A stretch of 64,000 nt of DNA from Eledone cirrhosa (Eukaryota). A program made the translations under genes and the position numbers. This document shows positions 43,078 through 44,223 of this stretch, one piece after another (the stretch's first letter is position 1; each line of letters starts with the position of its first letter). The notes beneath the pieces are model-generated. The model ran no database searches and was not told the origin of the DNA. It saw nothing but the letters and a program-made list of their open reading frames with translations. Where the stretch lies: positions 142,662,001 through 142,726,000 of the forward strand of contig OZ024740.1 of the NCBI GenBank assembly GCA_964016885.1. Reading direction: 5' to 3'.

Positions 43078-43110
<33 letters not shown>

Positions 43111-43353
43111 ACAATATATTTAGAAACACACAGATACATGCGGACACACACATATATACATGAATGCATCCGCACCCAACTGTGAGTTAAGGGTGCCAAC
43201 TTCACCGATGTTGCTCAATGAATGACTGGGACAGACCAATTCAGTTTGAACTAGACTGAACCAGTATCAGAGTTAAAAATACATTATGAAGAGAGAAGAA
43301 ACATTTAGATATAATTAGTAATAAAATGTATCATACCTAAACTGCTCCTAAAT

Positions 43354-43441
43354 TCCTCGACTACGTAGTTTCGTGGCATAAACAAAAACAATATATCAAA
43401 GATATAGAGTCCTTGCGAGGTCTGCCGACTTATCAAGAGGA
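43354..43441 (-). ncRNA. Type-I hammerhead ribozyme, U3:A8 core variant (copy 1)
   Basis: Minus: TCCTC-TTGATAA-GTcGGCA..TGCCAC-GAA-ACTA(CG)TAGT-C-GAGGA. All three stems pair. Predicted cut between 43359 and 43358. Confidence 0.8.
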
Positions 43442-43947
43442 TACCTCATTTTACTAGTCTCAAGAACGCGTCTACACGACGTGAGAAAGAATCCCAAAAG
43501 GCGGAGGGGGAGATAGTCACGCGATATAACGGTCGAGAAACAGAGCTAAGCCTCTTATAACCACGAAGAAAATACCACGGAGGCGGAGGGGGTATTCATA
43601 TCGAGGCCGTAGAAGAGGTAGTGAAGAAGGCGAGAAGTATGAGTAATGGAAGCTTTCCAGTTGTCCTCACACTTCAAAGATTGCTCGACCAGAGGGAGTT
43701 ATTAACAATATATTTAGAAACACACAGATACATGCGGACACACACATATATACATGAATGCATCCGCACCCAACTGTGAGTTAAGGGTGCCAACTTCACC
43801 GATGTTGCTCAATGAATGACTGGGACAGACCAATTCAGTTTGAACTAGACTGAACCAGTATCAGAGTTAAAAATACATTATGAAGAGAGAAGAAACATTT
43901 AGATATAATTAGTAATAAAATGTATCATACCTAAACTGCTCCTAAAT

Positions 43948-44035
43948 TCCTCGACTACGTAGTTTCGTGGCATAAACAAAAACAATATATCAAAGATATA
44001 GAGTCCTTGCGAGGTCTGCCGACTTATCAAGAGGA
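43948..44035 (-). ncRNA. Type-I hammerhead ribozyme, U3:A8 core variant (copy 2)
   Basis: Identical to copy 1. Predicted cut between 43953 and 43952. Confidence 0.8.
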
Positions 44036-44223
44036 TACCTCATTTTACTAGTCTCAAGAACGCGTCTACACGACGTGAGAAAGAATCCCAAAAGGCGGAG
44101 GGGGAGATAGTCACGCGATATAACGGTCGAGAAACAGAGCTAAGCCTCTTATAACCACGAAGAAAATACCACGGAGGCGGAGGGGGTATTCATATCGAGG
44201 CCGTATATATATATATAATATAT

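Follow-up and report, generated by a model that had tools for sequence, protein, structure and literature searches.

A probable Penelope-derived retrozyme with two U3-A8 hammerhead motifs in a (TA)n microsatellite

The element described here lies on the minus strand of a 64-kb window, the whole stretch of DNA that was analysed, where it interrupts a (TA)n microsatellite (Table 1). It is built from two copies of a repeat, A, that are 100% identical over 503 bp and recur with a period of 594 bp, and from a spacer, S, between them, which amounts to 1.85 units and not to a long array. Identical direct repeats of this length inside (TA)n had been claimed in an earlier note on this DNA, and both the exact identity and the interrupted (TA)n flanks were found. 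The window is microsatellite-rich with a GC content of 31% and has repeats reminiscent of an octopus genome, the unit has 41%, and no further copy of the unit is present in the 64 kb, the other blastn matches being microsatellite-like. The left and right (TA)n patterns are alike and may reflect a target-site duplication of 40-50 bp that has slipped, although the resemblance is no more than suggestive. Inverted repeats also lie near the unit at 44687-44901 (a 65-nt hairpin), 44994-46276 (96-nt arms 1.1 kb apart) and 46326-46500 (85-nt arms), and these look like MITEs or fold-back insertions.

Table 1. Coordinates of the repeat unit, its predicted ribozymes and its flanks within the window.
Feature	Position	Strand	Description
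Left interrupted (TA)n, 3' in RNA sense	43009-43108 (microsatellite span to 43110)		...A(TA)4 A(TA)5 A(TA)10 adjoining the element
Repeat A, downstream copy, pseudo-LTR-like	43109-43611	-	503-bp identity
Structured 250-nt domain downstream of the cut	43109-43358	-	Fold z -7.3; contains the two preferred 3' ends, 43279 and 43114
Hammerhead 2	43354-43441	-	Helix I 5' arm 43441-43437, core 43436-43430, helix II 43429-43373, helix III 43369-43360, predicted cut 43359^43358
Predicted 594-nt unit-length RNA between both cut sites	43359-43952	-	Fold z -7.7 linear, -7.0 circular
Spacer S, rest of the circularly permuted monomer	43612-43702	-	91 bp; occurs in the family, joined to A in other runs
Repeat A, upstream copy	43703-44205	-	503 bp, equal to the downstream copy; S-A junction longer by 3 letters than in the 591-nt form
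Hammerhead 1, identical to hammerhead 2	43948-44035	-	Predicted cut 43953^43952
Right interrupted (TA)n	44206-44256 (microsatellite from 44204)		A(TA)3 A(TA)5 A(TA)10

Each copy of A carries a type I hammerhead motif with a 5-bp helix I (UCCUC/GAGGA), the core UUGAUAA, a helix II of 57 nt closed by the pair G10.1-C11.1 and followed by GAAA, and a helix III formed by the palindrome ACUACGUAGU and followed by GUC^. The conserved type I core (C3/U3 U G A N G8/A8 A; GAAA; UH) and helices I, II and III are all present, the core as its U3-A8 variant, and the two minus-strand cuts proposed earlier were recovered at the expected distance of 594 nt. A strict descriptor gave four matches in the window, whereas 100 block-shuffled windows averaged 0.01 (one of the 100 with any match) and 5000 shuffles of the unit had none, figures whose significance is somewhat overstated as the descriptor was composed after the motif had been seen. 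Rfam models at gathering score, those for hammerheads included, had no match anywhere in the window, which is probably explained by the long helix II and the variant core.

In the accessible text of the respective papers, U3-A8 cores and palindromic helices III occur in the hammerheads of Penelope-like elements (PLEs), where U3-A8 is a natural covariation (PMC4209133), and a dimer through a 10-bp palindromic helix III has been proposed for repeat-type hammerheads (PMC3088659). In the literature searched, which was mostly free of subscription papers and stood apart from Repbase and Dfam, neither a description of a U3-A8 core combined with a 57-nt helix II nor a paper on the 591/594-nt family was found. 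Only this ribozyme shape, the U3-A8 core together with the 57-nt helix II, is somewhat unusual. The 2017 work of Luense et al. on dimeric PLE hammerheads may describe long-helix-II variants. Two small features were also noted around the ribozyme. An ATG that falls in the 3' strand of helix II starts a frame of 24 codons (43381-43307, minus strand), which may be due to chance; the ORF of an Anolis PLE likewise starts within its hammerhead, according to the part of the paper available (PMC11167929). Similarly, AG/GUAU, a candidate 5' splice site recognised by eye only, stands in a hairpin about 20 nt past the cut at 43338-43333 (minus) and again at ~29255 (minus) in an unrelated family, and PLEs are described as carrying introns near the ribozyme in the available text of PMC4209133.

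Folding against shuffled sequences gave strongly negative scores for the ribozyme strand of the 594-nt unit in both linear and circular form (Table 1), with -1.5 for the opposite strand. Most of the signal comes from the 250 nt past the cut, the spacer scoring -1.7 and the 5' part -0.3, and the isolated ribozyme region is no better folded than shuffles (z -1.2 to -1.4). The monomer is 64% paired, a high degree of self-pairing of the kind that marks retrozymes. The predicted fold of the unit is branched rather than rod-like, and the hammerhead occurs on one polarity only. A two-polarity viroid-like replicon was considered as a candidate and fails, as the ribozyme and the strong fold are confined to one strand and the fold is not rod-like.

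When the two isolated ribozyme regions were co-folded without constraint, the minimum free energy structure was the double hammerhead, at -58.9 compared with -43.0 kcal/mol for two monomers, and the remaining two strict motifs in the window likewise pair via helix III when co-folded. The intermolecular helix III reaches 0.9 just after transcription of the second cut site. In none of the nascent, full-length or circular folds computed does helix I rise above a probability of 0.0, and forcing the double hammerhead in a cis transcript costs 9-13 kcal/mol. Because the dimer co-folds but helix I is absent from the full-context folds, these models suggest that cleavage is likely to be dimeric and either slow or assisted.

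The reverse transcriptase and GIY-YIG ORF of an autonomous PLE was not found in the unit by six-frame translation, Pfam or protein searches. Pfam scans of all three frames chosen (the YGLD frame, the QLESF frame and a 72-aa plus-strand frame) returned no family, and together with the six-frame translation this bears out the reported lack of a credible ORF. The weak QLESFH..YGLD echo of a GIY-YIG end that had been noticed earlier is not supported, as QLESFH and YGLD lie in different frames and none of the protein comparisons bears it out. A word search of longer proteins with the YGLD frame, a weak test, gave ten candidates and none at E<=10, and phmmer with the QLESF frame (49 aa after an in-frame stop) over 1.84 billion proteins gave a single match with no significant stretch, to a repetitive 7691-aa protein that was set aside as spurious.

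Evidence for a family comes from sequencing runs, which were searched with the permuted monomer 43230-43823 as the query. The unit was compared in detail with four of the 24 runs listed (X1, X5, X10 and X22), and the shares in the other runs are not used here as evidence of habitat or host. In X1, 1516 contigs align to the unit, 745 of them at 99% identity or more and 464 at 95-99%. The summed depth in this run, which is not equivalent to copy number, reaches 298-629 thousand across most of A and 97-180 thousand across S, and single divergent contigs have a depth of 12-18. Among the loose ends listed for X1, those running into (TA)n are at 43279 (11 contigs) and at 43708 (4 contigs), the latter corresponding to 43114 in the downstream copy. 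These preferred 3' ends lie 80 and ~245 nt downstream of the cut, and the locus itself ends 5 nt past the second. The loose ends in (TA)n suggest that X1 is genomic, and if it is genomic DNA, the family would be young and would number on the order of ten thousand copies. Eight common substitutions reach 5% in X1, none of which is in the catalytic core; the six in predicted stems, two of them in the spacer, all keep the pair (p ~0.04, or ~0.12 counted over all sites).

Furthermore, two runs with other organism labels contain the same unit. One 621-nt contig of X5 (depth 7.8) covers the whole unit, closes a 591-nt cycle and has no flanks, and a contig of X10 (depth 10) spans the S-A junction in the 591-nt form, so that the head-to-tail junction by which retrozymes are recognised is found in other samples. 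Both contigs are without three letters at 43704 and both differ at 43667; in the X1 table, this 3-letter gap takes up only 9% of the depth at that place. By arithmetic, two such changes remove ~64 of 564 words and give 0.89, which is the X1 share, and three bring it to 0.83, close to the X5 value of 0.82. Since the word shares of X1 and X5 fit such changes, the family form is probably the one of 591 nt, with 594 nt as a local variant. No reads matched in the roughly 1/100 of the raw Hi-C run X22 that was covered, which counts as no test. Because X1 shows two preferred 3' ends and the S-A junction recurs in X5 and X10, the unit is a family unit and not a one-off truncation or an assembly error, and the doubt raised earlier that its two-copy structure might be an assembly duplication is made very unlikely by the contigs of X5 and X10 that span the junction.

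We consider it quite likely that the unit is a young, high-copy, non-coding and non-autonomous element from the pseudo-LTR region of a Penelope-like retrotransposon, in other words an animal non-LTR retrozyme with a monomer of ~591 nt. Four of the features by which retrozymes are defined are present, namely consecutive complete hammerheads (two motifs 594 nt apart), the absence of coding content, a repeated junction and a self-paired monomer. The insertion signature of PLEs is present as well, with a (TA)n target, a partly tandem copy and 3' ends at fixed points downstream of the ribozyme. The proposal of the earlier note, of a young, non-autonomous, hammerhead-bearing element mobilised by a PLE and with a helix III that favours dimers, gains support from the family data and from the co-folding, the mobilising enzyme presumably being a PLE reverse transcriptase. 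Animal retrozymes have been described as being cut to monomers that RtcB circularises in vitro, and mobilisation by PLEs has been proposed for them (PMC7229834, available text). Similarly, the accessible part of a more recent study reports that retrozyme families, whose lengths span 51-972 bp, occur together with PLEs and show a relationship to pseudo-LTRs, and argues that animal retrozymes are non-autonomous pseudo-LTR derivatives of PLEs (bioRxiv 10.64898/2026.07.22.740005). Because of this argument, the reading as a retrozyme and that as a truncated PLE are less opposed than first thought.

In its strict form, the latter holds that the locus represents an autonomous PLE whose pseudo-LTR is in partial tandem and which was truncated twice at insertion, that S is an ORF end or 3' UTR and that there is no independent mini-element, which is unlikely. 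PLEs normally show partial tandems, tails and (TA)n targets, and a (TA)n bias is described for several clades in the available text of PMC8557442. The depth of S in X1 is about one third of that of A, so that many copies lack S or carry a more diverged S, and some X1 contigs depart from the unit, one of depth 250 leaving at 43542 for 258 unlike letters and three leaving at 43660; an ORF-bearing parent could also sit among the 80 further loose ends of this run. However, the X1 depth does not drop towards the upstream end of S, the share of X1 contigs that continue into unlike sequence is listed as 0, S yields no protein signal in the searches described above, and its variants keep RNA stems. 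The same S-A junction recurs in the independent runs X5 and X10, which speaks against the one-off, doubly truncated autonomous PLE that had been named as the alternative.

It is very unlikely that the second copy of the same non-autonomous element arose by local DNA duplication or as an assembly artefact, with the ribozyme as a passenger. The copies are indeed identical and sit in a microsatellite, where assemblies slip, and unequal crossover has been proposed for the growth of retrozyme tandems (bioRxiv 10.64898/2026.07.22.740005, accessible part), but an A-S-A arrangement needs S and the S-A junction, both of which occur in other runs, and both ends of the locus coincide with depth steps or loose ends of the family.

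Words of the unit occur in 20 of the 24 runs listed; these 20 date from 2022-2025, come from 16 studies and bear 17 organism labels, and 14 of them contain at least half of the words. In X5 and X10 the unit is found at a depth of 8-13 with at most two substitutions and the same 3-letter gap, in X5 as a flankless cycle. It is nonetheless most improbable that the 591-nt unit is also an extrachromosomal viroid-like circle moving between unrelated animals, with the genomic copies as cDNA fossils in one host, as a very abundant repeat carried over in traces would look just the same (the consensus alone, shallow in depth and flankless), none of the 20 runs with words of the unit is on record as RNA (a blank being no evidence either way), the hammerhead and strong fold have one polarity and a branched shape, and metagenome and viral contigs hold no true match. 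An exact 21-mer of the unit had no match in metagenome contigs and a pattern search had none in viral contigs. The sole gapped-pattern match, metagenome contig L001, has no helix I pairing and no other likeness and was attributed to chance. The trace flankless copies under other organism labels are therefore probably carry-over; the cross-organism signal would matter much more if they were not. On this most improbable reading, a mobile 591-nt circular RNA, cut by a dimer-only hammerhead with a 57-nt helix II and passing between animals, would be more than a transposition intermediate and would connect Penelope-derived retrozymes with viroid-like agents as a living link.

As a Penelope-derived retrozyme, the element could be copied in the following way. 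The minus strand would be transcribed through more than one unit, and the two hammerheads would pair via the palindromic helix III to form a double ribozyme, whose cleavage would probably be inefficient or aided by protein. A unit-length RNA would be released and might be circularised by a host ligase, for which we put the chances at roughly even. A PLE reverse transcriptase-endonuclease acting in trans would nick (TA)n, and reverse transcription would start inside the RNA at one of two sites, 80 or ~245 nt downstream of the cut. By analogy with PMC11167929, the structured domain that follows the cut may be the region where the reverse transcriptase binds and initiates. Because the genomic copy crosses the cut site twice, its template was a circle or an uncut multimer, and a reverse transcriptase passing over the cut site would leave sub-unit, unit or partial-tandem copies.

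Whether the template was a circle rather than an uncut multimer is evenly balanced. In the available text of the Anolis study, the PLE protein nicks AT-rich DNA and begins reverse transcription inside its RNA, at either of two sites past the hammerhead on the downstream side, which produces a 'tail', while hammerhead mutants had no effect on insertion in vitro and no reads ended at the cut (PMC11167929). In addition, one of nine Xenopus retrozyme dimers was cleaved, as given in the accessible part of bioRxiv 10.64898/2026.07.22.740005. Both results call for caution over the cleavage and circle steps. The identity of the A copies does not separate the two templates, since most contigs of the family are 95-100% alike, and A-S-A DNA would assemble into a de Bruijn cycle just as circular RNA would.

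The window holds further hammerhead elements, which share no significant sequence with the 594-nt unit. A second family on the same plan lies in (TA)n at 28970-29702 (minus), with a 685-nt period, a 43-nt terminal direct repeat and a hammerhead with CUGAUGA, a 49-nt helix II and GUA^ at 29272; its second copy at 51126-51731 (minus) is 85% alike and 5'-truncated, with the same 3' end and a damaged ribozyme. A 178-nt insert in (TA)n at 27685-27862 (minus) carries a hammerhead with a 27-nt helix II, the helix III AUAUAUAU and AUA^ at 27741, which co-folds as a dimer via helices I and III. About 50 bp from the unit, at 44259-44372, a near-perfect hairpin with two inverted minimal hammerhead-like motifs (CUGAUGA/CUGAGGA...GAAAC...GUC) resembles PLE inverted insertions, and at ~62560-63230 two minimal hammerheads (62719 minus; 63107 plus, with one core change) form an inverted pair whose cores are of the U3-A8 type and whose palindromic loop is AATT. 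As the window has several unrelated elements on the same plan, PLE-type ribozyme elements are common in this genome. Hammerheads with a long helix II (57, 49 and 27 nt in three unrelated families) are missed by Rfam, and counts of these ribozymes in comparable genomes are probably too low as a result.

Relaxed hammerhead-like motifs with long helix II regions were also seen at 10886 and 18081, both on the minus strand. As for coding sequence elsewhere in the window, a 667-aa open frame at 13474-15477 (minus) has RVT_1 and an inserted PHD finger in Pfam and is a LINE-type rather than a PLE reverse transcriptase. Broken frames at 56014-57252 (plus), in which Pfam finds only a weak zf-RVT, look to us as though they belong to the C-terminal portion of a non-LTR element that has a restriction-like endonuclease.

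The class of element is already known, and the locus leaves the picture of animal retroelements unchanged. Its value is as a clean test case for whether Penelope-type elements copy from a ribozyme-made circle or from uncut multimers, because the family is young and non-coding, has two defined 3' ends and carries a ribozyme whose predicted active form is solely the dimer.

Compared with animal non-LTR retrozymes as far as the available text of two sources describes them (PMC7229834; bioRxiv 10.64898/2026.07.22.740005), the unit shares non-coding head-to-tail units with one type I hammerhead each, a GC content below 45% and a self-paired monomer, as well as the two consecutive complete hammerheads of the definition by Li et al. 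It differs from them in forming 1.85 units instead of a long array, in being dispersed in (TA)n and in having two fixed 3' ends, and it is a predicted retrozyme known here from DNA. Its ribozyme also differs in being of the PLE type, with U3-A8 and no canonical loop 1/loop 2, and is predicted to be blocked in the circle, like those of plant retrozymes and some mussel ones. The earlier suggestion that the monomer is longer than typical retrozymes holds against the 170-400 nt given for invertebrate retrozymes in the accessible text (Cervera and De la Pena, 2020; PMC7229834) but not against the range of 51-972 bp, inside which it falls (Li et al., 2026, available part), and its length is not exceptional.

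With the pseudo-LTR hammerheads of PLEs, including Poseidon PAc, the unit shares a 5-bp helix I, the G10.1-C11.1 pair and a palindromic, dimer-forming helix III (PMC4209133; PMC11167929, both in their available text), and the U3-A8 covariation is common to the unit and the Schistosoma Cercyon elements in the accessible part of PMC4209133. Partial tandems, two 3' ends downstream of the ribozyme and AT-rich targets are likewise shared with Poseidon PAc and PLEs. Unlike PLEs, the unit has no reverse transcriptase or endonuclease ORF, its helix II is 57 nt long compared with the stems of 6-8 bp described in the text available, and its preferred 3' ends are 165 nt apart compared with a tail of 30-40 bp (PMC11167929, available text). 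Finally, the non-autonomous Chlamys elements described in the accessible part of PMC8557442 differ in that most lack canonical hammerheads, their hosts are algal and their autonomous partners are known, but those such as MRC1 are, like the unit, short non-coding dependants of PLEs with pseudo-LTRs, head-to-tail copies and microsatellite targets.
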